A stretch of DNA of 64,000 nt, taken from the IMG/VR virus record IMGVR_UViG_2872147552_000001; one strand, given 5' to 3'. Shown here piece after piece: positions 2,856 through 55,180 of the stretch. Each line of letters opens with the position of its first letter. Within the stretch, counting starts at the first letter, position 1. The notes under the pieces are model-generated. The model was not told the DNA's origin, did not search any database, and was given only the letters and a program-made list of their open reading frames with translations. Both the position numbers and the translations under genes were made by a program. The DNA is from a virus (lineage: Duplodnaviria; Heunggongvirae; Uroviricota; Caudoviricetes).

Positions 2856-3731
2856 TTAAATTTTTACATTGGTCAGTGCAGCGATAGCCTTATCGTGCTT
2901 ATTCGCCAGAGAGCAGTACCACTTCACACGGGTACGTACTGCGTCTTTGTTCTGTACAGTACCAATGTTTTCAACAACGATACCTGCGTTGTCGCCGCCA
3001 TACAGACCAGTAACGCCGTTCTCTTCTGACAGATGCAGGCAGTAGATGCTTGCTTTGCCAGAATCGGTCGGGATGAAGTCGTTGATGATGAACGGAACGC
3101 CGTTATGACACAGCATCGGACGACCGAAGTTCTCCATCATGATTTCAGACGGACCTACGTTTACTGTACGCAGCAGCGCACGGTAAGCACGCAGGTGCTC
3201 TGAACGCATCATGATGCAGTCAGCACCAAGATCTTTCACCGCATCGACCAGTTCGTCGAACATAGAGAAAGTCATAGATGCACCGGCGATATCGATCTTC
3301 TGATCTGCGTGCATCAGGCGTGGAATGCCGTCAAACGCCTTGTTGTTGGAGCTGGAGTCACCCAAAATCAGGTTGCGACGGAACGCACGAGCCAGACCTT
3401 TAACTTTCTGACGAACCTGAATAGCCAACTGGTTGTTGGTGTCGGCCATAGTGGTCGCCAGGAATTTATCAACGTCTACGTCACCAGCCAGAATACGCAG
3501 TTTCGCAACGCATTCTTCGAAGGTTGCTGCACCTTCAGGGATGGTGTCGTTAACGTCGATGAAGGTAGCTTCACTCAGCGTTTTTTCACGGTTGTACAGA
3601 TATGCCTTTGAATTAATTTTCATAAAAGGCAGGATGGCAAACAGGTCATCGCGATCGATGATAGTTTCGATCACACCCTGTTCAAGTTCGTTGTTAGACA
3701 GCTTTTCAGCTTCTTCACGCAGTAATGGCAT
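2856..3731 (-). CDS. major capsid protein (by position and size)
   Basis: 291-aa ORF between scaffold-like gene and Ig-like decoration gene in the order TerS-TerL-portal-scaffold-capsid. Confidence 0.55.
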   Translation of the reverse strand: MPLLREEAEKLSNNELEQGVIETIIDRDDLFAILPFMKINSKAYLYNREKTLSEATFIDVNDTIPEGAATFEECVAKLRILAGDVDVDKFLATTMADTNNQLAIQVRQKVKGLARAFRRNLILGDSSSNNKAFDGIPRLMHADQKIDIAGASMTFSMFDELVDAVKDLGADCIMMRSEHLRAYRALLRTVNVGPSEIMMENFGRPMLCHNGVPFIINDFIPTDSGKASIYCLHLSEENGVTGLYGGDNAGIVVENIGTVQNKDAVRTRVKWYCSLANKHDKAIAALTNVKI

Positions 3732-3756: not shown

Positions 3757-4644
3757 TTACTTAAGTCCAATTTTCCCCAGACCGGAGGCCAACTTATCCA
3801 TAGTCGACTTGTTCTTCGGTTGGGATATTGTGTAGGTCGATTTGGAATGTGAGCCTACACCCTGCTTGGCTTCGCTACGCATCAATGCGTCAGCTTCCGG
3901 ATCTGCCCGCACAATGCGTTCAATCGCGGATTCAAACGGCAACGGCTTACCTTCACCGTCAACCAGAACAGCTCGTTCTTTGTGACCTGCCGGTTTGTCA
4001 TAACCCACTACGCTACCGTCTTCACCAACTTCAAAATGAGAACCGTAGATCACGCGGGCTTTTGCCGGGGTCATCAGAACTTTGTCACGTAGGAAGAGAG
4101 AGTTACTGAAGGAAGCGCCCACGGTCATCTCGACTAATTGAGATTTCAGTGATGCGTTTTCACTTTCCAGTGCTGCATAACGTTCGTCACGCTGTGCCAG
4201 CTCTGCCTGGTGTGCTTCGATCATCTGTTTTTTAACAGCATCGAACTCACCACGACGCTCCAGTTCAGCTTGCTCCGCCTCACGACGTGCGTTTTCTGCG
4301 GCCTGTTCAGCTTCTAAAAGCTGGCGAGCACGAGCCGGATCGATATCACCGTACTGAGCAAGCTGATCGGCCAATGTGCGCTCTTTCTCTTTGCGCTTCA
4401 TGTTCTCCTTCAGCAGTTCAGCACCAGCTTTCTTGGTTTTACGAAGTTCGGCCAGTAACTCTTCCTGAGTCATGCCAGCGTATTCGTCATCGCCCTTCGG
4501 CTGCTCTTTTTGTTCACCCTGTTTGTCAGGATCTTGTGTACTCTGCTCATTATCAGCAGCTACACCGCCAGCGCCTCCACGCTCATGCGCTTCAGCGACA
4601 TCCATCAGACCACGACGGGCCAAAAGCATTTGCCACAGATTCAT
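3757..4644 (-). CDS. scaffolding protein (coiled-coil, E/A/K/R/Q-rich)
   Basis: 295-aa highly charged helical sequence (ELLAELRKTKKAGAELLKENMKRKEKE...) between portal and capsid genes; AAGGAA RBS. Confidence 0.5.
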   Translation of the reverse strand: MNLWQMLLARRGLMDVAEAHERGGAGGVAADNEQSTQDPDKQGEQKEQPKGDDEYAGMTQEELLAELRKTKKAGAELLKENMKRKEKERTLADQLAQYGDIDPARARQLLEAEQAAENARREAEQAELERRGEFDAVKKQMIEAHQAELAQRDERYAALESENASLKSQLVEMTVGASFSNSLFLRDKVLMTPAKARVIYGSHFEVGEDGSVVGYDKPAGHKERAVLVDGEGKPLPFESAIERIVRADPEADALMRSEAKQGVGSHSKSTYTISQPKNKSTMDKLASGLGKIGLK

Positions 4645-13677: not shown

Positions 13678-13703
13678 TCACGCTATCAATTAGGGAGACA
13701 AAG

Positions 13704-14168
13704 ATGAAGTCTCCCATACTGTTCACTTTCTGTTCTAAAACTATCATGAAATACTCGCTTCTCCCTCTACTAACGTTACCAGTGTTGATGCTTACCGCGT
13801 GCCAATCACGCCCAATATCAATCCATGACGCCAAACCAGCACCGCAGGCCAAAGTGTTCAAGTATCAAAGCGCAGCGCCAGCTACGTTGGTGGTAATGAG
13901 AGACACAGGTTTTGTAGGAGCTGGATGTGATGCTTCCATTTTCATCAACGGCGAAACTGTCGCAAAACTGGCTACAGGCGAAAAAGCGACTTTCCATTTA
14001 AATGCCGGAGAATTAATTGTGGGTGCATCTCTTGAAGGTGCAGGTTTATGTGCTCTAAACCCCGCTCGTCAAGAGCGAGAAACGACTCTGAAGAATGGAG
14101 ACACAAAAGCATTCAGGGTGTTCACCAGCAATTCTGGTGACATCGACATTCTGCCAACAACTCTGTGA
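13704..14168 (+). CDS. lipoprotein (lipobox LTAC), hypothetical; superinfection-exclusion candidate
   Basis: Hydrophobic signal segment ending in L-T-A-C; GGGAGA RBS at the 13704 start, alternative start at 13746. Confidence 0.5.
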   Translation: MKSPILFTFCSKTIMKYSLLPLLTLPVLMLTACQSRPISIHDAKPAPQAKVFKYQSAAPATLVVMRDTGFVGAGCDASIFINGETVAKLATGEKATFHLNAGELIVGASLEGAGLCALNPARQERETTLKNGDTKAFRVFTSNSGDIDILPTTL

Positions 14169-14172
14169 TGAC

Positions 14173-14697
14173 ATGACAACCAAAGATATTACCTACGGTA
14201 TCCAAGCTGAACTCTGGCCGCGAGATTACACTAACGTTGAAAAACTACTGATGTTCTGGCGCAGAGAACAAATTCCTGTAAGGGTCACTCTCGAAGATGG
14301 CCAGGCGTTTTGCATGTACGTTTATGGCCTCATGCCATCTCGTAACAAAGTTGACCTTTGCCCAGCCCCTTTTGACAAAGAAAATCGTATAAGGCTCCCA
14401 CTTGAACGCATTAGTACAATTGAATCAGGTGTGGTTGACAGTATCGCTCACGATTTCAAAGGTCGACTAACAGTTCACCCTGATTATGTCGATAATCGGC
14501 CATCACGCCGCGATTTTTTTGCAATTTGCAACCAAGCCTACAAAGCAAACAAATCTATAAGGGTGTACATGGCGGATGGCCGTGAAATTGAGGGGGTGTC
14601 AGCAGGCGCAGATGCTTGTCAGGTTACACTACGTGTCGAGAACGGTAGAAAAATAGTTGTTTTGTTCGATTGGGTTGAACGAATTTTGCCTTTTTGA
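14173..14697 (+). CDS. hypothetical protein with two Rof-like repeats (tentative)
   Basis: Track ORF 14095..14697 trimmed to ATG at 14173 just after the upstream stop; repeats VRVTLEDGQAF and IRVYMADGREIEGV faintly resemble the Rho-inhibitor Rof fold. Confidence 0.35.
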   Translation: MTTKDITYGIQAELWPRDYTNVEKLLMFWRREQIPVRVTLEDGQAFCMYVYGLMPSRNKVDLCPAPFDKENRIRLPLERISTIESGVVDSIAHDFKGRLTVHPDYVDNRPSRRDFFAICNQAYKANKSIRVYMADGREIEGVSAGADACQVTLRVENGRKIVVLFDWVERILPF

Positions 14698-14700
14698 GTT

Positions 14701-15009
14701 ATGAAATCGATATTGTTACCACCATTATTTTTACTTTGCTCAGTTGCGGCAAATGCAATGGACTATAAGCCTGTCATTCAATCGCTGATGAATGATGTGT
14801 GCTCAACGTCTCAGAATGTATCAGTTTGCATGTATCAATTTTCGGCAGCCGTAAAAGCAGGAAAAGCGATAGGTGAGAATGTGGAACTGTGTAAGAAAGT
14901 GGCAAATGAAGAACGGGCAATGTTGGATTGCGAATCTAGCGAGTCATCGGCACAGTTCGTTGATGCGCTATTTGACACCAATCGTAAGGCTGTAGAGTCT
15001 GTTCAATAA
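14701..15009 (+). CDS. secreted or periplasmic small protein
   Basis: N-terminal signal peptide MKSILLPPLFLLCSVAANA followed by a Cys-containing mature domain. Confidence 0.45.
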   Translation: MKSILLPPLFLLCSVAANAMDYKPVIQSLMNDVCSTSQNVSVCMYQFSAAVKAGKAIGENVELCKKVANEERAMLDCESSESSAQFVDALFDTNRKAVESVQ

Positions 15010-15199
15010 ATCTATAAGGTTAATAACCGGCTAAGTCCGGTTATTATTTTTCACATCACTTCTTTATATCTATAAATCAAATAACCTAAATATATATAAG
15101 GTCTAAAGCCGGAATCGATTATTTATTTAGGGAACACCTTCGACGATCTCGCTTTTATTTCTAGGACTTTCATCCCTGCAAAAAAATTTAAAAAAACAC

Positions 15200-15228
15200 T
15201 TGCAATCTTTTTTCGCATATCGATAATT
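15200..15228 (+). promoter_or_regulatory. sigma70-type promoter candidate (TTGCAA - 17 nt - GATAAT)
   Basis: -35 and -10 hexamers with 17-nt spacer inside an AT-rich gap about 65 nt upstream of the 15293 start. Confidence 0.45.
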
Positions 15229-15292
15229 GAACTCGTCGAAAGCGAAGACGCTAACGACAATAAATTTTAAATTTACATAAGGAAAAATTATC

Positions 15293-15943
15293 ATGGCTAA
15301 CATTATCATTTCTAAAAAATCCATCATTGAAGCTGCTTCCATTGTATCCGATGAACTGCGCGAAAAAGCAGATCTGGCAACTCAAACATATAACGAACAT
15401 TATAAAAATGGTACGCACACTAAAGCAGACAAAGCAAATATGCAAGCTGCGACCACTAAACTTGCTTACTTCATCAACAACGTTGTAAACGCTGTAGAAG
15501 ACGAAAAATTATGCTCTGTTTTCTACTATGCGATCAAAGCAAGCAAACAAGCGCCAGAAGTTTTTTTCCGTGATGCAATGACTAACAGTTATTCTCTGGA
15601 AAAACTGGTTTATCTGGTCAAATCAATTAAATCTGGTAAATGCGTTTATTCCGTCGCTGATATGTCAGGATCTCGTGTATTTGCTTTAATCGATATGATT
15701 AACGACGAGATCGACACGTTCACCAATGGCGCTGTTTTCGATTTAATGAATGAAGCTAAAAAAGCGTGCGAAATTAAATTGGACGCTGGCTATACTCAAG
15801 CCAACCAGTTGATCAATCTTTGCGAACGTCTCGGACTTGTTGAAAAAGTCAAAGGAGCTGGGAGCGCGAAAGCTGGTACTCAGCAATATCGCTTCGTTAA
15901 AAATGATTTTTATAACTATCTGGCTGATGCTTTTAAAGCGTAA
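15293..15943 (+). CDS. hypothetical protein
   Basis: 216-aa ORF with AAGGAAAAA RBS after an AT-rich promoter region. Confidence 0.45.
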   Translation: MANIIISKKSIIEAASIVSDELREKADLATQTYNEHYKNGTHTKADKANMQAATTKLAYFINNVVNAVEDEKLCSVFYYAIKASKQAPEVFFRDAMTNSYSLEKLVYLVKSIKSGKCVYSVADMSGSRVFALIDMINDEIDTFTNGAVFDLMNEAKKACEIKLDAGYTQANQLINLCERLGLVEKVKGAGSAKAGTQQYRFVKNDFYNYLADAFKA

Positions 15944-15991
15944 TTAATGGAATCAAGCGCCCACTATGGGCGCTTTAAAGGAGCTTTAAAA

Positions 15992-16195
15992 ATGGTCAGC
16001 TATGACAAGATCCGCGCGGAATATCGCGCAAAGTATCGCGCTTATAAACTGGAATTAATCGATGATTTGATCGCGCAACGCGACCAATTAAATTTTACGT
16101 TTTCTGATTTGCTCAACAGCAAGCGAGATTGCAAGCGCAAACGTGAATACTTACGTTTAAGCGCATTAATCGGAAAACTTCAAAATTCTATTTAA
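15992..16195 (+). CDS. hypothetical small protein
   Basis: Track ORF 15947..16195 trimmed to ATG at 15992 with AAAGGAG RBS; the 15947 start would lie inside a hairpin. Confidence 0.35.
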   Translation: MVSYDKIRAEYRAKYRAYKLELIDDLIAQRDQLNFTFSDLLNSKRDCKRKREYLRLSALIGKLQNSI

Positions 16196-16216
16196 TTTTT
16201 TTTAAGGAGCTTTATC

Positions 16217-20672: not shown

Positions 20673-21731
20673 TATGGACCGAAGGCTGACCGTAGGGGTG
20701 TTACGGGGGATAAAATCAGGAGTTGAATAAATACGAAAAAGGAGGCGACACCCCTCCTTCCCTCCCCACTTATACATACCTGGCTTCTTCGCTATACATG
20801 TTGTGTTTTATTCGTGTTTTATCTGTCTCAACCTCTCTATGGACGTTAACACTCACTCCTTCCAGAACGTTCTATACGGCGACTAATTCTGTTGGTGAAT
20901 TGGGTGTGTTGTTCTCTCTGTCGGTGTATGTGGTTTCGTTCGTTTTGCGGTGGTTCTTCTATGGGGTGTTCTCGTCGTTTTGGTGATTGTTCTTCTCCGT
21001 GTATGGAGTAATGGCAGGTGGGCGATTCCTTTCGTTGTTGTGTTTGAGTTGTTTGTCTGGAGTGTGAAAGGCTTTTGTAGTTATTCGTGTATTGGGTAAT
21101 GGCGTTTCCCGTGATTGTTCTGTTTCGTGTCTTTTGGGATTGAGAGAAGCCTTGCGGTTACAGGCTTCGTTGGGGGTTCAGTGATTCTGGTGTTTCTTCG
21201 CTGTTTGGGTAATGGCGTGTCGTGGGTATCGCGCGTATGAATGTTTTCGGATTGCCTGTGAAAGTTAGGTTGGTTGTCCGGTAGCCTGGGGAGAAGAGGT
21301 GGGTCTTTTCGGTAGCCTGCCATAAAGAGGTTGGTTGTTTTTGGAAATGGCATATGTGTTATTTAGTTGTTTTGTTATGCCTGAAAATAAGTTGTTTATA
21401 TGGTTATGTAACGCAACGGGAACGATTTTGAGCGTGTGTTTTTGTTGGTAGTGTGTTGGGTCGTCTGTGGTGAAAATTGGACGCTGTGGCGCTGTCTGCT
21501 GCGTAGAATTACGGGTATAAGCAGTGATGTGTGAAAACGTCAATTTTTTAGACCAAATAGGGTGAAAGCGTTGATGTTTCGTTGATCTGTTATTTAGTTG
21601 TTTTCTTGTTTGTATAAACAACTATAACCTATTGATATTTAAGGATGTGATTGCGGGTATGGAAGGGGAGTAGTGGCGATCAACGGATTCTTATAGAAAA
21701 GAATCAAATTGTGACCGCCATTATCAATGTT

Positions 21732-22466
21732 TTACTTAGTTTTGTTTAGCAGAGAGAGAATTTCATCACTAATTTCACTCGCCTGTTTGATAGCCAATGC
21801 AGTTACCTCTTCTATGGTTGGTGACTGTTGATGCTCATGTTTGGTTTCAGTTATGACAATGTGTTCTTCACCTGAATTTGCGCATAGTGCCGCATTGACT
21901 ATAAGGTTTGAGTAAGAATTTAGCAGAGCACTGTTGATAAACGCTTTCACGGTATTACTGTCTGCACCAAATACATCTTTTCTGACCGCTTCAGCCTCAC
22001 AGCGAACCCCTGCAGCAACATCGTGAAGAACATGTATGGCCTTGGAGCTTGTTTGTTCACAGTACTCAATCATTATTGTCGAATTGTTCTGTTCAACAAA
22101 TGATCTGATGCCTGACGATTCACCCATAGCATCGAAGGCAGCGTGACCCGCACTAGTAGAGATATCTTCGTAGAGTTCTTCATCGCTATCTTTTTCTTCA
22201 GGTGTCGAGGTGTCTTCATCGTCGTAATAGATATTGCCTTTAATCAGTGTTTTGGATACTTGATATAAACAATAAGAGACGAGATTTAAGCATTGGATTT
22301 TAGCTGTATTGTCCTTTGTCGCCTCGCTCTTCAGTTCTTTCGCTTCTTCAGTAAGGCTGTTGATAAGACTTTGTATTTTTTCCAACGCGTTAGGTGCACA
22401 CTCCGCGTTGTCCATAAAGAATTTATAACCAGTTCCAGGGATTTCTAAACTTTTCAACTTTTTCAT
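21732..22466 (-). CDS. hypothetical protein (AT-rich, acidic)
   Basis: 244-aa ORF of lower GC content than its neighbours. Confidence 0.4.
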   Translation of the reverse strand: MKKLKSLEIPGTGYKFFMDNAECAPNALEKIQSLINSLTEEAKELKSEATKDNTAKIQCLNLVSYCLYQVSKTLIKGNIYYDDEDTSTPEEKDSDEELYEDISTSAGHAAFDAMGESSGIRSFVEQNNSTIMIEYCEQTSSKAIHVLHDVAAGVRCEAEAVRKDVFGADSNTVKAFINSALLNSYSNLIVNAALCANSGEEHIVITETKHEHQQSPTIEEVTALAIKQASEISDEILSLLNKTK

Positions 22467-32295: not shown

Positions 32296-33981
32296 TCATT
32301 TAACGCGTTTGAAAACGTATACGCTGACTGTGATCCCTGTGTCTTCAAACTCGTTGGTAAACGACTTCCCTCTGGCATAAACGTAATTATCCATCGTCAT
32401 CCAGTCCAGTATTGGCGCAGTGCCCGGCAATACTGCTACAAGACGCCCGCCGACTTTCAGATGCCCCAGCGCAGCCAGCGTGTGCTCTCTATGACGACCA
32501 AGCGAGTACGGCGGGTTCATAACGATTTTGTCGAACTGATAACCTACGTTGTCCTCAGACCACTTTATGAAGTCGCAGCAAATCGTGTTCGTATACCCTT
32601 TTCCGCGCAGGATATCAGCGAAGAGAGGTGCGATTTCTATGCAGGTAACATCTTCCAGATCGGCGTTAATATAGGCCAGAAGATCCCCACGTCCGGCTTG
32701 AGGCTCCAGCAGCTTCTCACCAGGCTTCAATTCAGTGGCTCTGGCAACGTACTCAGCAATCAAGCGTGGGGTAGGGTAGAACTGGTGTGATTTTGTATCC
32801 GGTATTAAACCGGTAGCCACAATCGTATTTAGCGTATGGACGATGTCATACGGGAACTGCCAGTGCTTTTTCTCCTGCACGCCGCCAATGAAGCTCAGTG
32901 TGCGCTCAAGCTCTTCCACCTGCGACTTCTGGAGAGCTGAATCAGAGAAGTACCATACGCCTTTGTCTTTGCTCAATCGCCCGTCACGAAGCGCAGTGCG
33001 AACCGGCACGGAGATCGTCTTCTGGATTAACCCGAACTGCTTTGGTGCCCGTGTTTTTGGCGCGGTGCGACATGGCGCGGGGATTGCAGCAGGCATACTG
33101 TAAGCCAGCACCTCATTCAACTTCCAGGCCACGTCAGGATGTATTTCAAAGTGAACGTTGCCGTTCTTGAACATCTTCACGCGCATCAGATTTCCATCGA
33201 CGTTCATCCAGTCACCGGTCTGGCAGTCGTTTGCCCGATACGCAGCTGATAGCACCTCAGCAGTGCGGTTGATGGTAATAAATTCTTTGTGCGCGAAGAA
33301 ATGAAGCAAGACACGCAGATCGTCGATGTAGTCCTCTTTGCGATAGTTCACGCTAACGCTGTCCCGCCAGAAATCAGAAATGCAGTCAGCGATTATCAGC
33401 CGCTCGCTGAAACCGTTTGTCTTATTTGTCTTGTGCGCAGGACTCAGCGCCTTAAACAAGCCATACACGCGCTCAGAGAGATATTTGTGCCTGTCATTCA
33501 GCAAATTAAGCATCGTGGGTATGACCGTTTCTGCTTTGAACTCCGGTACACCAACGAACTCTTTAACCTTCATCTGGTAGCCGGTTCTGTCAGTTTTGAT
33601 GACTTCCTGTTTGCCCTCTATAAACTGCTCGCGCCACTCATCTCGACGGGAAGCTGGCATGATCAGCAAAACGTTAGTCATGTCCGTGACCTTCCTCCAG
33701 TACTCGGCCCAAATATTCTGTTTCACCCATTCCAGATCGACTTTATCCAACCAACCTCGATTTAAACGCGAGCGATCTTCATCTGGTCGATGGTTTAGTC
33801 TCAGCAGGCGATTAATCATGTTGTGGCGTTCGTCGCCATAAACGAAGTCGTGTACCTGATACATGAAGGCGATCTCTTTCTCGCACTCGGCCACAATTTC
33901 GTGGATGACGTTCATTTCCTGCCGATAGTCGATAGCAGTGTTTGAGTTGGCATCGTCGATGATGGAAAGGGCTGTATTCAT
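32296..33981 (-). CDS. DNA N6-adenine (or N4-cytosine) methyltransferase fused to a ~380-aa N-terminal domain of unknown function
   Basis: C-terminal motif I (LEPQAGRGDLL) then motif IV (NPPYS) in gamma-class order; no recognisable motifs in the N-terminal 380 aa. Confidence 0.6.
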   Translation of the reverse strand: MNTALSIIDDANSNTAIDYRQEMNVIHEIVAECEKEIAFMYQVHDFVYGDERHNMINRLLRLNHRPDEDRSRLNRGWLDKVDLEWVKQNIWAEYWRKVTDMTNVLLIMPASRRDEWREQFIEGKQEVIKTDRTGYQMKVKEFVGVPEFKAETVIPTMLNLLNDRHKYLSERVYGLFKALSPAHKTNKTNGFSERLIIADCISDFWRDSVSVNYRKEDYIDDLRVLLHFFAHKEFITINRTAEVLSAAYRANDCQTGDWMNVDGNLMRVKMFKNGNVHFEIHPDVAWKLNEVLAYSMPAAIPAPCRTAPKTRAPKQFGLIQKTISVPVRTALRDGRLSKDKGVWYFSDSALQKSQVEELERTLSFIGGVQEKKHWQFPYDIVHTLNTIVATGLIPDTKSHQFYPTPRLIAEYVARATELKPGEKLLEPQAGRGDLLAYINADLEDVTCIEIAPLFADILRGKGYTNTICCDFIKWSEDNVGYQFDKIVMNPPYSLGRHREHTLAALGHLKVGGRLVAVLPGTAPILDWMTMDNYVYARGKSFTNEFEDTGITVSVYVFKRVK

Positions 33982-34084
33982 AATTGCACCATTAAGAAGT
34001 GATTTGTTTAATGGTGCAATTATTTCAAAAATGAAAAGGTACTAAATAGAAATAAACAGGCAATCCTTCAAATAAAGGCATTGG

Positions 34085-34699
34085 CTAATCATACTTGGAG
34101 GTATTTATCACCAGAATTTTGTTTGTATAAATCTTCTTAATATCCCATGTGACATTACCGGAATACCATTGACCGTTATATACTTGGTTTCCAGTTGCAC
34201 CTGTCATTGTTACATAGACAGGTCTGTCGTAATCGGTTCGTCTATAGTTATATACTCCAACCATAGCAGGCATTACCGCACATGGATACCCCATATCTAT
34301 TGTAAATTGAGGGTCAGAAATAGTGATAAGTTTCGCATCAAGGGGCATCATCTCACCGTGATACACCATTGCGCCTGCGCTGTTATACATGGCAATGCCA
34401 TAGCCAGAATGTGGTAACACCATATCAGAAAAAGCATAAACTGTTATTGTTCCGGGGCTACCATTTACCTGATGCAATCTGAGAGCATTGTATCCGTTAC
34501 TATGCTCATGAATAAACATCATGTTCGCCTTATTACTGCTTTTTATGAAGAAAAAGCATGATTTGTTTGATGGGATTGATGTTTGAAAAACAGAACCTTT
34601 AGATGTAGACATTGTCCCTTTATTAATCAGATTTTGCGGAGTAAATTCTGGACTCATCCACAAACTTCCATCTGATTGAGTAATTGACATCCCGAACAT
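34085..34699 (-). CDS. hypothetical protein (AT-rich island)
   Basis: Track ORF 34085..34756 trimmed to ATG at 34699, which follows the upstream stop by 2 nt; G/Y/N/T/S-rich, low GC. Confidence 0.3.
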   Translation of the reverse strand: MFGMSITQSDGSLWMSPEFTPQNLINKGTMSTSKGSVFQTSIPSNKSCFFFIKSSNKANMMFIHEHSNGYNALRLHQVNGSPGTITVYAFSDMVLPHSGYGIAMYNSAGAMVYHGEMMPLDAKLITISDPQFTIDMGYPCAVMPAMVGVYNYRRTDYDRPVYVTMTGATGNQVYNGQWYSGNVTWDIKKIYTNKILVINTSKYD

Positions 34700-34701
34700 A
34701 A

Positions 34702-34983
34702 TTATCCCCAGTATGTGTATATGTAAGAACCAAGCCCCGTATATAAATTTGACCAACTAACCGTATTTCCATTAATAGTAACTGTTGGAACAGGTAAATT
34801 AATGTAGTTGTCGTTGTTAAGAGGCATCAATGACCACACGGCATGTAGCGATTTACCCGGTGGCGGATTGGAGTACGTCTTAGAGCCTGATGACGCAGTA
34901 AATCGATCAAGAAAAAAAATAGGAGTAAGGAAGCCAGTAACGTTAATTCCTTTATTGTTGTAAATCCCTGTACCGTATGCCAT
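34702..34983 (-). CDS. hypothetical protein (AT-rich island)
   Basis: 93-aa ORF, same low-GC segment. Confidence 0.3.
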   Translation of the reverse strand: MAYGTGIYNNKGINVTGFLTPIFFLDRFTASSGSKTYSNPPPGKSLHAVWSLMPLNNDNYINLPVPTVTINGNTVSWSNLYTGLGSYIYTYWG

Positions 34984-35038
34984 TTTTCATCCTTGTTTTT
35001 TATCAACACAATATGGCCGATCATGCGGCCATATCAGA

Positions 35039-35608
35039 TCAATTAGAGCTTTGAAAGGCTTTGTGTGGCTGTGTTGCGAGGTTATGTCGATGGCTTAACT
35101 CACGCATCATGTCTTCAAGCCGACTCTTTGTGTCGTCGAGTTGGTCGGCCATTGCTCCCAAAAGCTGACGAACGGCCATCGGATCATCGCTGTTTAGTGA
35201 TGGCATTTTATAACCCGCCTGAGAAGACATAAGATTGAACGCAGACATCAACATCGTTAGAGAGGATTTAAGCCCAGCAATTTCACGATCTTTGCTGGCA
35301 ATAATCGCCTCACTCTTGTTAGTGTCATCAGTTCGTTGAGTCTCGCTCACCATATCCAAAGTCGCCTGCAACTTATCAGCGCGCTCTTTTTCAGCAAGAT
35401 AATGAACACCGAAATGATGTGCTAAAGCTACAACCTGAGTTGGCTCTTCAAAGGTGGACTCAAAATTAAGTGCTGTAACCACTCTCTCAAATATGGAAAC
35501 GTCTTCTATTCCTCGAAGAATGGCTAACATTTTGACCAGTTCATTAGCATCCATTTCTTCGAATAAGGCGTTTTGTTCATCAGCTATCGCTTTGCATTTC
35601 TTGCACAT
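35039..35608 (-). CDS. hypothetical protein
   Basis: 189-aa ORF with AGGAAAAACAC-ATG context; promoter module at 35627-35661. Confidence 0.4.
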   Translation of the reverse strand: MCKKCKAIADEQNALFEEMDANELVKMLAILRGIEDVSIFERVVTALNFESTFEEPTQVVALAHHFGVHYLAEKERADKLQATLDMVSETQRTDDTNKSEAIIASKDREIAGLKSSLTMLMSAFNLMSSQAGYKMPSLNSDDPMAVRQLLGAMADQLDDTKSRLEDMMRELSHRHNLATQPHKAFQSSN

Positions 35609-54477: not shown

Positions 54478-54676
54478 AATCGTTTTTTCAGTAGTTATTG
54501 GCCGATGCTACGATAACTCATTAGGCATACCTTAATCTGCATTTGCCTGTTTTACTTATCCCAGTTATCCACTGGATAGATCCAAATAAGAGATCCCAAG
54601 TAAGATCAAATAGAAGATCCAAAGAGATCCCAGATCGCCTCTAGCCGTTGCGGTTACTGGTCTGAAAGGGTGTTGC

Positions 54677-54779
54677 CATCCACTATGGAGAGCAAAGAAA
54701 CCTCTGTAGAGAGCTGAATAACCGCTATGAAGAGTAAAACAACCACTCTGGAGAGCTGTATATATCCACTGTAGAGAGT
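54677..54779 (+). repeat. iteron array 1 (5 direct repeats, consensus A-A/T-CCACT-A/G-T-A/G-GAGAG-C/T, about 21-22 bp spacing)
   Basis: ATCCACTATGGAGAGC, ACCTCTGTAGAGAGC, AACCGCTATGAAGAGT, AACCACTCTGGAGAGC, ATCCACTGTAGAGAGT. Confidence 0.7.
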
Positions 54780-54890
54780 AGAGCACATTGTCTTTTATGG
54801 ATAACTTAATGACTTAATTCTTCATTAACATACTGATATACATAGATATATTTTAAACTCTACTCTTAGTCATGATTCTTATGTCCTTAA

Positions 54891-54946
54891 ATATCCACAG
54901 AAGAGTAGAGTTACCTGTTCTTGAAATCCTCTGATTTTTATCCACA
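54891..54946 (+). promoter_or_regulatory. DnaA boxes (ATATCCACA 8/9 at 54891-54899; TTATCCACA 9/9 at 54938-54946) in an AT-rich spacer
   Basis: Perfect match to the TTATCCACA consensus, located between iteron arrays 1 and 2 next to a 110-bp AT-rich stretch. Confidence 0.6.
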
Positions 54947-55057
54947 GGCCCGATCCAGTAATTCAGATCACAAAGAGAACCAAAGAGACCCATAAAGACC
55001 CAATAAGATCCCCGCCCACCTCAAACCGTTGTGCCATCTGCCTTCAGACATGATCGA

Positions 55058-55180
55058 TATCCACTATAGAGAGCGAATAATCCACTATAGGGAGCAAAGC
55101 AACCACTATAGAGAGGAGAAAAACCACTATAGACGGTAGGATAACCGCTGTGATGAGTGCTACTATCCACTGTAATCAGC
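55058..55180 (+). repeat. iteron array 2 (6 direct repeats)
   Basis: ATCCACTATAGAGAGC, ATCCACTATAGGGAGC, AACCACTATAGAGAGG, AACCACTATAGACGGT, AACCGCTGTGATGAGT, ATCCACTGTAATCAGC immediately upstream of the rep gene. Confidence 0.7.

Follow-up and report, generated by a model that had tools for sequence, protein, structure and literature searches.

A displaced two-gene cassette in an SSU5-like E. coli phage-plasmid probably encodes an exchangeable tail-tip receptor-binding module

We analyzed a 64,000-nucleotide stretch of viral DNA (the window) and found that its AT-rich two-gene island is probably a displaced, exchangeable tail-tip receptor-binding module, encoded away from the tail operon. 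Both island proteins belong to a family of tail-tip proteins, the fold modeled for the larger one resembles that of a solved receptor-binding protein (RBP), neither protein carries an export signal and both genes are under purifying selection. The window derives from an SSU5-like E. coli phage-plasmid that is 99.7% identical to CMS-2020a and 98.6% identical to Cyrano/pLF82. Both ORFs were confirmed on the minus strand at the positions given in the first-pass annotation of this DNA (Table 1).

Table 1 Coordinates of the island, its two genes and its hairpins within the window.
Feature	Position	Strand	Basis
Whole inserted/replaced segment	~34040..~35058	n/a	Three-way alignment of window, pEC881_2 and SSU5
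ORF2, 204 aa, predicted monomeric tail-tip receptor-binding protein ("hand-like", PHROG 425)	34085..34699	minus	phrog_425 and model
ORF1, 93 aa, small beta-sandwich partner of ORF2 (PHROG 557)	34702..34983	minus	phrog_557
Stable hairpin, extended stem (core ATATGGCCGATCATGCGGCCATAT, 35011-35034)	~35002..35043	minus	RNA fold
Weak AU-rich hairpin followed by U-rich tract, 3' of ORF2	34036..34090	minus	Fold of 33975-34090

The island is a real, horizontally acquired segment. Aligned with SSU5 and with pEC881_2, an E. coli plasmid whose site is empty, the window diverges from both empty sites at a left junction near 34040, and the insert stands in place of approximately 100 bp in which these two relatives have a GC-rich terminator (GGGGGCTTTCGCCCCC). 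A presence/absence comparison, as the first-pass annotation had proposed, revealed patchy occurrence: about 117 of the 544 PLSDB plasmids matching the methyltransferase flank cover the island, while SSU5, Klebsiella and Enterobacter relatives and some E. coli relatives are without it. The DNA is 76-80% identical to the cassette of the virulent Nonagvirus phages JenP1, JenP2 and BRET, with homology to JenP1 restricted to 34085-34989, precisely the two coding sequences. This identity and the absence from SSU5 and others bear out the horizontal origin suggested earlier. Between the window and the phage-plasmid PhiR41_1 the coding sequences are 84-86% identical and the flanks 97-98%, a signature of cassette exchange that is typical for RBP loci. 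The genes surrounding the island look early or accessory (methyltransferase, Ea22/Eaa-like, RNase H) and not like a late tail operon, a setting that counts against the receptor-binding reading.

Sliding-window analysis confirmed the AT-rich composition. The GC content of 33982-35038 is 0.378 compared with 0.464 for the window (z = -2.76 relative to every equally long window), and as low a value is found in just 0.95% of these windows; one other region, starting at approximately 14.5-15.2 kb, is equally AT-rich. Both island genes have a GC3 of 0.37, whereas 59 window genes average 0.473 (sd 0.063). The percentages for ORF1 (G 10.8, Y 8.6, N 11.8, T 10.8 and S 9.7%) agree with the description of the proteins as G/Y/N/T/S-rich. 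Given the patchy presence and deviant GC, the uniform presence and normal GC that the first-pass annotation had named as contrary evidence are not what is seen. Of its phrase "recently acquired", however, only the second word holds. Cassette GC lies below that of the resident genome in 9/9 phages examined, pointing to low GC as a characteristic of the gene family, and two island alleles within the phage-plasmid clade are dS 0.65-0.84 apart, which makes recency doubtful.

Full-length HMM searches matched ORF2 to phrog_425 (E = 2.2e-72 over residues 1-204) and ORF1 to phrog_557 (E = 4.7e-29 over 1-93), and both proteins are homologous to products of the RBP locus distal to the central tail fibre gene J (E = 7e-71 for ORF2, 7e-46 for ORF1). 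We placed the ORF2 start at the ATG at 34699 because all homologs open with M[FY]G[ML]SI; the mechanical ORF list holds a longer version of 223 aa from a TTG start. ORF2 shares 83% identity with JenP1 gp21, 61% with Stx-phage gp47 and with the phi24B homolog (located by tblastn in HM208303), 39-42% with the BtuB-linked Warwickvirus protein (39% for Bas04_0023), 27% with SSU5_024 and 24% with T1 ST31. The corresponding values for ORF1 are 76% for JenP1 gp22, 63% for Stx gp48 and 30% for SSU5_023, and in every case the ORF1 homolog lies directly upstream of the ORF2 homolog. Strong purifying selection acts on both genes (dN/dS 0.06-0.13 for ORF2 and ~0.07 for ORF1). A pseudogene or junk reading is ruled out by intact ORFs in the 117 plasmids together with dN/dS of ~0.1.

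PHROG 425 is labeled "membrane associated protein" or "moron" and PHROG 557 "outer membrane protein" in the database. As judged from the proteins themselves, the two membrane labels are not supported: we detected no signal peptide, lipobox or transmembrane segment in ORF1 or ORF2, while the same test was positive for the lipobox/signal controls T1 Cor, SSU5 Cor, tonijn gp18 and Oekolampad gp26. Neither protein had an above-threshold match in Pfam or NCBIfam; the partial hit of DUF6453 to ORF2 residues 77-138 (15.4 bits, E = 0.012) stays below the gathering threshold of 25 bits. A sequence search of the PDB returned chance matches only (E > 1), PADLOC holds no family for the island proteins at E up to 1, and we found them to resemble neither Caudo_TAP nor any other known fibre chaperone.

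Structure comparison extends the link to a characterized RBP. The AlphaFold2 model of ORF2 is all-beta (pLDDT 89.7, pTM 0.85) and matches the solved Oekolampad RBP chain (PDB 9rpt chain C) with a Foldseek probability of 0.94, by which ORF2 is predicted to share the fold of an experimentally validated RBP of the J-distal class. An hhalign comparison of the ORF2 family with the Oekolampad RBP sequence was non-significant (probability 1.2%), so the link is structural only. Natural single-chain fusions of an ORF1-like and an ORF2-like domain (hhalign probability 92.5%, E = 5e-7) are 315-323 aa long, the size of the 321-aa Oekolampad RBP, and one fusion gene has a J-like C-terminus ahead of it and a tail fibre and Tfa behind it. 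The existence of such fusions speaks for the small and large proteins working as one unit.

In JenP1, tonijn, FritzSarasin, T1 (with Cor) and Stx phages the gene pair follows directly after gpJ or the needle gene. This J-distal hypervariable "bona fide RBP locus" tracks receptor specificity (PMC8594841; bioRxiv 10.64898/2026.04.02.716166). The pair of the window does not adjoin J, as no J is encoded in the window (largest ORF 779 aa); in Cyrano, J lies at 17.7-22.4 kb and the pair at 81.9-82.8 kb. SSU5 and pEC881_2 carry one copy of each family after the tail fibre, beside Cor in SSU5, and none at the methyltransferase site. HMM searches of six-frame ORFs found the island in Cyrano and PhiR41_1 and zero copies in their tail modules; in the island-bearing NZ_CP014490.1 and NZ_AP025215.1 merely 77 nt of the canonical pair region were matched, and NZ_CP103696.1 has a pair-less junction. 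Island and canonical pair are thus mutually exclusive in the genomes examined, in a cross-tabulation that covers only a handful of genomes plus aggregate counts.

Since J lies outside the window, we assessed its tip on the near-identical Cyrano and PhiR41_1. The final ~120-190 residues of J in Cyrano, PhiR41_1, SSU5 and pEC881_2 share homology that extends to the last residue with the J tips of JenP1, T1, tonijn and Oekolampad as well as with the Stx needle. Between Cyrano (island) and pEC881_2 (canonical pair) the J tip is 99% identical, although their RBP alleles share only ~27-30% identity. Because the tip is near-constant despite such divergent alleles, there is, bar one penultimate residue, no co-variation that would prove docking.

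The first-pass annotation had also noted a hairpin bounding the island near 35000, which RNA folding confirmed (-17.5 kcal/mol; z = -3.3 against shuffles). Within the insert it separates the ORF1 ribosome-binding site from the stop codon that ends the preceding gene (35039-35041). Lacking a U-tract or T-run and not scored by a consensus scan, it does not qualify as a canonical terminator. The hairpin is missing from the empty-site relatives and from JenP1 and is 96% conserved between the window and PhiR41_1, even though both coding sequences have diverged far more. The AU-rich hairpin 3' of ORF2 may be a weak terminator and was not picked by the consensus terminator scan. Likewise, we found no sigma-70 consensus promoter near the island, in a scan that weak or phage-specific signals may escape. 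The orthologs CYRAN_88/89 are outside the 13 Cyrano genes expressed, at ≥5-fold above background, in the LF82 lysogen, whose element is 98.6% identical to the source of the window (PMC9928086).

Comparison with known systems places the island closest to gp21-gp22 of JenP1/JenP2/BRET, which share its gene order and, like it, have no adjoining exclusion lipoprotein. There, in a virulent phage, the pair is immediately next to gpJ, encoded on the other strand, and has its own AT-rich upstream region, whereas the island belongs to a phage-plasmid, lies 55-60 kb from J and 55 nt behind another gene, and has none of the JenP1 flanks. Next come gp54/gp55 of phi24B and ORF73/ORF72 of Sp5, from short-tailed, BamA-dependent phages, with 61% (ORF2) and 63% (ORF1) full-length identity. 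In this Stx group the ORF2 C-terminal subdomain (residues ~137-170) is the best conserved part, while it is the most divergent against the BtuB-linked allele. The Stx phages differ in being podoviruses, with the pair placed after the needle gene and before lom. The Warwickvirus proteins (FritzSarasin Bas04, tonijn) are 39-42% (ORF2) and 49-52% (ORF1) identical over their full length, and the receptor of FritzSarasin has been experimentally determined as BtuB. Over its C-terminal third, however, the large Warwickvirus protein bears no sequence relationship to ORF2 (26-29% identity for windows in that part), and the third gene of the locus, a lipoprotein with lipobox LTGC, is absent from the island.

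More distant kin (24-30% identity, profile E 1e-17 to 1e-88) are T1 ST32/ST31, N15 gp22/gp23 and SSU5_023/024, each with Cor. They form a different allele class at the canonical site after the tail genes and are coupled to Cor; T1 uses FhuA. The copy in SSU5 itself indicates that a module of this type was in use on the ancestral backbone, and the lineage of the window has lost both the SSU5-type copy and Cor. The Oekolampad (Bas18) RBP, Rtp44, follows the same genomic logic, being encoded after gpJ and capping J non-covalently, a capping that for the island pair is our proposal. It is a single chain of 321 aa instead of 93 + 204 aa, shares 12% identity, recognizes LptD (solved complex PDB 9rpt) and is accompanied by the exclusion lipoprotein Rtp45. 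The insert holds no third ORF or lipobox protein, so that a cognate exclusion lipoprotein is absent, as in JenP1. T5 pb5/Llp offers a functional analogy only: pb5 is a dedicated monomeric RBP on a trimeric central fibre tip, of ~640 aa and paired with the lipoprotein Llp, and we found no sequence or fold match to the island proteins.

In the mechanism we propose, ORF2 would act during lytic growth, probably as a monomer, by capping the trimeric central tail fibre J at its C-terminal tip; J is encoded outside the window, ~55-60 kb away on the element. Docking would occur via the conserved N-terminal arm of ORF2, with ORF1 as a small beta-sandwich partner, probably at 1:1, and both proteins would be present in the virion. 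The distal face of ORF2 would then bind an E. coli outer-membrane protein, leading to irreversible adsorption and DNA ejection. The allele probably arrived by horizontal exchange from a pool common to Nonagvirus and short-tailed Stx phages, and the island would have functionally replaced an ancestral SSU5-type pair and Cor located after the tail-fibre genes. As the nearest characterized relatives are found in BamA-dependent Stx phages, BamA is our best guess for the receptor, with BtuB or a different porin as possible alternatives. No assignments for JenP1, Cyrano or SSU5 appear in the supplements of the 2026 receptor-prediction preprint, and we found no publication on PhiR41_1.

Work on Stx phages bears on this proposal from two sides. 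The 204-aa phi24B gp54 was detected in the virion proteome at low abundance, with extra density on the needle tip, and was proposed as a BamA binder, while gp55, the counterpart of ORF1, was undetected in virions (bioRxiv 10.64898/2026.04.10.717836). Independent AlphaFold-Multimer work has suggested that the missing RBP of the tip is this pair (PMC12309495). The exact orthologs in Stx2 phage Sp5, ORF72 (92 aa) and ORF73 (205 aa), were deleted individually, and neither belongs to the nine genes that plaque formation or lysogenization on K-12 requires (PMC5155283 and its supplement). The pair is therefore dispensable in that podovirus, which is the main caveat to the RBP reading.

The Sp5 deletions would also fit a non-essential tail-tip accessory, with J or a lateral (P1 S-like) fibre making the primary receptor contact and the pair, for example, widening host range, helping to penetrate surface glycans or stabilizing the tip. 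The constancy of the J tip between carriers of very different alleles and the scarcity of gp54 in the phi24B virion agree with such a role. We nevertheless regard it as unlikely: in small siphoviruses the terminal receptor can be predicted without exception from the allele found at this locus, the structurally related Oekolampad protein binds LptDE directly, exactly one pair is kept per genome examined, and purifying selection is strong. It is highly improbable that the two proteins are assembly chaperones for the J tip or a lateral fibre that are not kept in the virion. For ORF1, the likelier candidate, the generic fold and the missing gp55 would suit this role, and "structural or chaperone-like roles" have been raised (PMC12309495). 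Against it stand the presence of gp54 in the virion, the match of ORF2 to a receptor-bound RBP and the dissimilarity to known fibre chaperones; moreover, the natural fusions would hold the small domain attached.

The first-pass annotation had instead proposed a lysogenic-conversion moron, in which the pair would serve the lysogen in superinfection exclusion, as a lectin-like surface protein or in anti-defence. Deviant GC, patchy distribution, accessory-gene surroundings, the database labels and the position ahead of lom in Stx phages are all compatible with this. Yet the export signals found in Cor, the Warwickvirus lipoprotein and Oekolampad gp26 are lacking here, as is the exclusion lipoprotein that goes with the pair elsewhere. 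The orthologs are silent in the LF82 lysogen, neither a promoter consensus nor a PADLOC match was found, and the proteins belong to a tail-tip family in which ORF2 has a virion-RBP fold and the phi24B homolog is present in virions. These data argue against the moron function and its candidate activities, and we give this explanation very little weight.

Returning to the receptor-binding module, a more far-reaching joint reading, which we put forward tentatively as possible though doubtful in its entirety, would unite BamA use by E. coli SSU5-like elements and JenP1/JenP2, a portable, exchangeable cassette and a split RBP. If true, the essential protein BamA would serve these phages as terminal receptor through a tip protein of the phi24B gp54 type. 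The two-gene module would be functional from any genome position, since it would attach non-covalently to a universal J tip. For exchange among virulent siphoviruses, Stx podoviruses and phage-plasmids, conserved flanks, the hairpin among them, would act as homology arms, and the two chains would represent a split version of the ~320-aa single-chain RBPs seen in the natural fusions and Oekolampad.

Overall, our analysis suggests that a host-range determinant can lie beyond the tail operon, mislabeled as "outer membrane protein" or "moron", where pipelines and receptor predictors that scan only beside gpJ would miss it. It also ties the "hand-like" PHROG 425 family to the sole solved RBP of its class, the Oekolampad-LptDE complex. 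Should the BamA prediction be true, PhiR41_1, which plates on K-12, would be a tractable siphovirus system for BamA recognition. SSU5-like phage-plasmids are widespread in clinical Enterobacteriaceae, often with resistance genes, and knowing their host-range genes would allow better forecasts of how these elements and the resistance genes they carry spread.

The 2.1 kb around the island are 99.7% identical to 'Escherichia phage CMS-2020a' (CP053388) and 98.6% identical to phage Cyrano, which is the pLF82 phage-plasmid of E. coli LF82; several E. coli plasmids of ~110 kb match them at 100% identity. By this near-identity the element is classed as an SSU5-like siphovirus living as a plasmid. Head genes occupy the left end of the window, which also holds a long series of minus-strand early or accessory genes; the tail genes, including the central tail fibre gene J, lie outside it. 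Strand asymmetry is marked at 21001-22000 (GC skew +0.33, AT skew -0.27); nowhere else does the window come near these values. At 54578-55133 there are iteron-like clusters of tandem repeats with 21/42-bp and 24-bp units (consensus CCACTATAGAGAGC...), possibly part of the plasmid replication origin.

The first-pass annotation described the island as a pair of genes low in GC and bounded by a hairpin, which quantification bore out. Both genes are present on the minus strand, and 33982-35038 has a GC content of 37.8% compared with 46.4% for the window (z -2.76; <1% of equal-length windows are this low). The codon-usage check agreed, with a GC3 of 0.37 in the island genes against a mean of 0.47. 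The hairpin maps to 35011-35034 and is stable (-17.5 kcal/mol, z -3.3), with no U-tract at this site. Alignment to the empty-site E. coli plasmid pEC881_2 (NZ_CP019027.1) and to SSU5 sets the limits of the insert at ~34040-35058, where it stands in place of ~100 bp holding a strong GC-rich terminator in both. As the insertion removed this terminator, transcription may now run through into the island and beyond. The inverted repeat overlapping the methyltransferase start belongs to the backbone, outside the insert, and is retained in pEC881_2, where a G-to-A substitution in one arm is compensated by C to T in its partner; a role as an operator or as a hairpin controlling translation is possible.

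Coordinates of the island genes and of related features in the window and its relatives.
Feature	Location	Detail
ORF1	34702-34983 (-)	93 aa
ORF2	34085-34699 (-)	204 aa
Shared N-terminal motif	ORF1 34983-34920, ORF2 34699-34630 (-)	
Perfect 16-bp inverted repeat	33981-34024	ATAATTGCACCATTAA ... TTAATGGTGCAATTAT; overlaps start codon and ribosome-binding site of the DUF4942 methyltransferase
Empty-site intrinsic terminator	L012 ~3020-3120, L003 ~4520-4620	GGGGGCTTTCGCCCCC + T-run, coding strand; between phrog_5508 gene and methyltransferase
ORF in AT-rich ~13700-16200 region	13704-14168	possible lipobox (LTAC)
ORF in AT-rich ~13700-16200 region	14701-15009	signal-peptide-like N-terminus
J penultimate residue R (...RIGRL)	Cyrano L009 22378-22417, PhiR41_1 L016 11960-11999	island carriers
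J penultimate residue L (...RIGLL)	SSU5 L010 7868-7907, pEC881_2 L013 14191-14230	canonical-pair carriers
Natural single-chain ORF1-like + ORF2-like fusions	P0164, P0166, P0171, P0174	315-323 aa

Searches of Pfam, NCBIfam and PDB sequences gave no match for ORF1 or ORF2, which PHROGs assigns to phrog_557 and phrog_425, respectively. The pair shares 76-80% DNA identity, confined to the two coding sequences, with gp22-gp21 of the virulent Nonagvirus phages JenP1, JenP2 and BRET, where it lies directly 3' of J. The same pair follows J in the same order in Warwickvirus, with a lipoprotein gene alongside, e.g. in FritzSarasin/Bas04, whose receptor was determined to be BtuB. In T1 the genes after J are ST32/ST31 and then the superinfection-exclusion lipoprotein gene cor; the T1 record mentions similarity of ST32/ST31 to N15 gp22/gp23 and HK022. 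Short-tailed Stx phages carry the pair between the needle gene upstream and lom downstream. The position after J is known as a hypervariable 'bona fide RBP locus'; in small siphoviruses, the terminal receptor can be predicted from the allele of the receptor-binding protein (RBP) found there (PMC8594841; bioRxiv 10.64898/2026.04.02.716166). Annotation of these genes is uneven: the reading frame of SSU5_024 (L010 12572-13219) is open ~80 nt 5' of the annotated start, the annotated CYRAN_89 (L001 4586-5191) falls 9 nt short of its homologues, and in Pectobacterium phage Taid the annotation omits an ORF1-family gene (L006 4684-4995) ahead of a 'membrane-associated protein'. Nothing in the sequences supports the public labels 'outer membrane protein' and 'membrane associated protein'.

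An AlphaFold2 model of ORF2 from a 95-sequence alignment is all-beta and confident (pLDDT 89.7, pTM 0.85), uncertain over the first ~20 residues only. It resembles the fold of the Oekolampad (Bas18) RBP, whose gene follows gpJ and which makes direct contact with its receptor (bioRxiv 10.1101/2025.07.07.663478). Since sequence-profile comparison of the ORF2 family with this RBP was not significant, the relation is one of fold only. ORF1 was modeled as a small beta-sandwich (pLDDT 83.5), for which a structural-neighbour search returned nothing significant. An exhaustive phmmer search yielded 72 cluster representatives, four of which are longer proteins that align to ORF2 from residue 102-111 on and whose first ~100 residues correspond to the ORF1 family (hhalign probability 92.5%, E 5e-7). 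The Oekolampad RBP, a single chain of 321 aa, has the same length. P0171 (locus L017 276-1226) follows a J-like C-terminus and is itself followed by an 85-aa gene on the opposite strand, a 597-aa fibre and a Caudo_TAP (Tfa) gene. The existence of natural fusions argues for ORF1 and ORF2 working together, probably 1:1. Both begin with the motif M-x-[YF]-G-x-x-I-x3-G-x5-TP and align over their first 50 columns (hhalign E 0.0018); the motif is the low-confidence and most conserved part of ORF2. The N-terminus of the Oekolampad RBP is similar (MGAGILIDYNDGRP...). This region would form an arm docking on J that may be common to both proteins.

The island had been proposed to be a moron, i.e. an autonomously expressed prophage gene, with an exclusion, lectin-like or anti-defence role. 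Signal peptide, lipobox and hydrophobic segments are absent from both island proteins; the same export-signal test was positive for Cor and for the exclusion lipoproteins of Warwickvirus and Oekolampad. Thirteen Cyrano genes are transcribed in the LF82 lysogen, and the orthologues CYRAN_88/89 are not among them (PMC9928086), a scan for promoter consensus at the island found none, and a PADLOC search with the island proteins gave no match. These results lend no support to a moron, superinfection exclusion or anti-defence. Both genes are under purifying selection (dN/dS 0.06-0.13). The sole other region matching the island in AT-richness, ~13700-16200 (GC 0.365 in 15001-16000), encodes small proteins with predicted export signals, and its genes are better candidates than the island for true morons or exclusion factors.

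Evidence from relatives bears on both function and receptor. The phi24B homologue (HM208303) is 61% identical to ORF2. In a cryo-EM preprint, phi24B gp54 (204 aa) was found in the virion proteome, extra density was seen at the needle tip, and gp54, with or without gp55, was proposed to bind BamA (bioRxiv 10.64898/2026.04.10.717836). Independent modelling led to the same RBP idea for the pair in Dhillonvirus, phi24B and a Pseudomonas podovirus (PMC12309495), and purified BamA neutralises EHEC podophages bearing the 61% ORF2 homologue (PMC12502783). ORF2 residues ~137-170 are the best-conserved stretch compared with JenP1 (94%) and Stx phages (74%) but the most divergent compared with the BtuB-linked Warwickvirus allele (26%), and on this pattern our guess for the receptor is BamA. 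The main result against an RBP comes from Stx2 phage Sp5, in which ORF72 (92 aa) and ORF73 (205 aa) were deleted singly and neither is one of the nine genes on which plaque formation or lysogeny on K-12 depends (PMC5155283). The pair is thus dispensable in this podovirus under the conditions tested, as expected of a non-essential tail-tip accessory, which we consider an unlikely role for the island; we favor receptor binding.

Presence across relatives is patchy. The island occurs in 117 of 544 plasmids matching the methyltransferase flank and is absent, among the matches listed, from Salmonella, Klebsiella, Enterobacter and Citrobacter relatives and some from E. coli. In SSU5 the gene order is J, tail fibre, adhesin, distant copies of both families (SSU5_023, SSU5_024), Cor and holin, and pEC881_2 has the same arrangement. 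In the island carriers Cyrano and PhiR41_1 the tail-fibre genes are followed by the holin, without a pair between. An HMM search of all six-frame ORFs found each family exactly once in every genome region examined, at one site or the other. Two more island-bearing plasmids match the canonical pair region over just 77 nt, and a third, with a 100% identical island, has a pair-less junction; in aggregate, 117 plasmids carry the island and 122 the canonical pair region. Such an either-or distribution favors the pair being the phage's own RBP module over a moron. Some SSU5-like relatives solve host recognition in other ways: Klebsiella pJN2-26 (L011) encodes a 4046-aa J, then fibre and holin with no pair, and some E. 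coli and Enterobacter plasmids (H308-H312) have a 'receptor-recognizing protein' gene beside the holin.

Over its C-terminal 120 residues, J shows 93-99% identity across Cyrano, PhiR41_1, pEC881_2 and SSU5. Alignment of this tip with the Stx needle and with J of JenP1, T1, tonijn and Oekolampad extends through its last residue, and all have the motif D-x-x-G-x-L-R-V-x-I-G in common. The RBP allele differs and the J tip is unchanged, which fits a universal socket and gives no co-variation proof of docking. The only tip difference going with the allele is the penultimate residue: the two island carriers have R, which JenP1, T1, tonijn and the Stx needle also have when aligned, and the two canonical-pair carriers have L. 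This split could be chance (n=4). Between the window and PhiR41_1 (34085-34983 vs L014 2086-2987) the island coding sequences are 84-86% identical (dS 0.65-0.84), whereas the flanking genes and hairpin are 96-98% identical. Such divergent coding sequences between near-identical flanks point to exchange of alleles at a fixed site within the phage-plasmid clade. Cassette GC is below that of the resident genome in nine of nine phages examined, hence AT-richness is inherent to the module and does not date its arrival; of the proposed recent acquisition, the horizontal transfer stands and the compositional argument for its age does not. Overall, the island is real and horizontally acquired, and it is likely a displaced, exchangeable tail-tip receptor-binding module of a known type.
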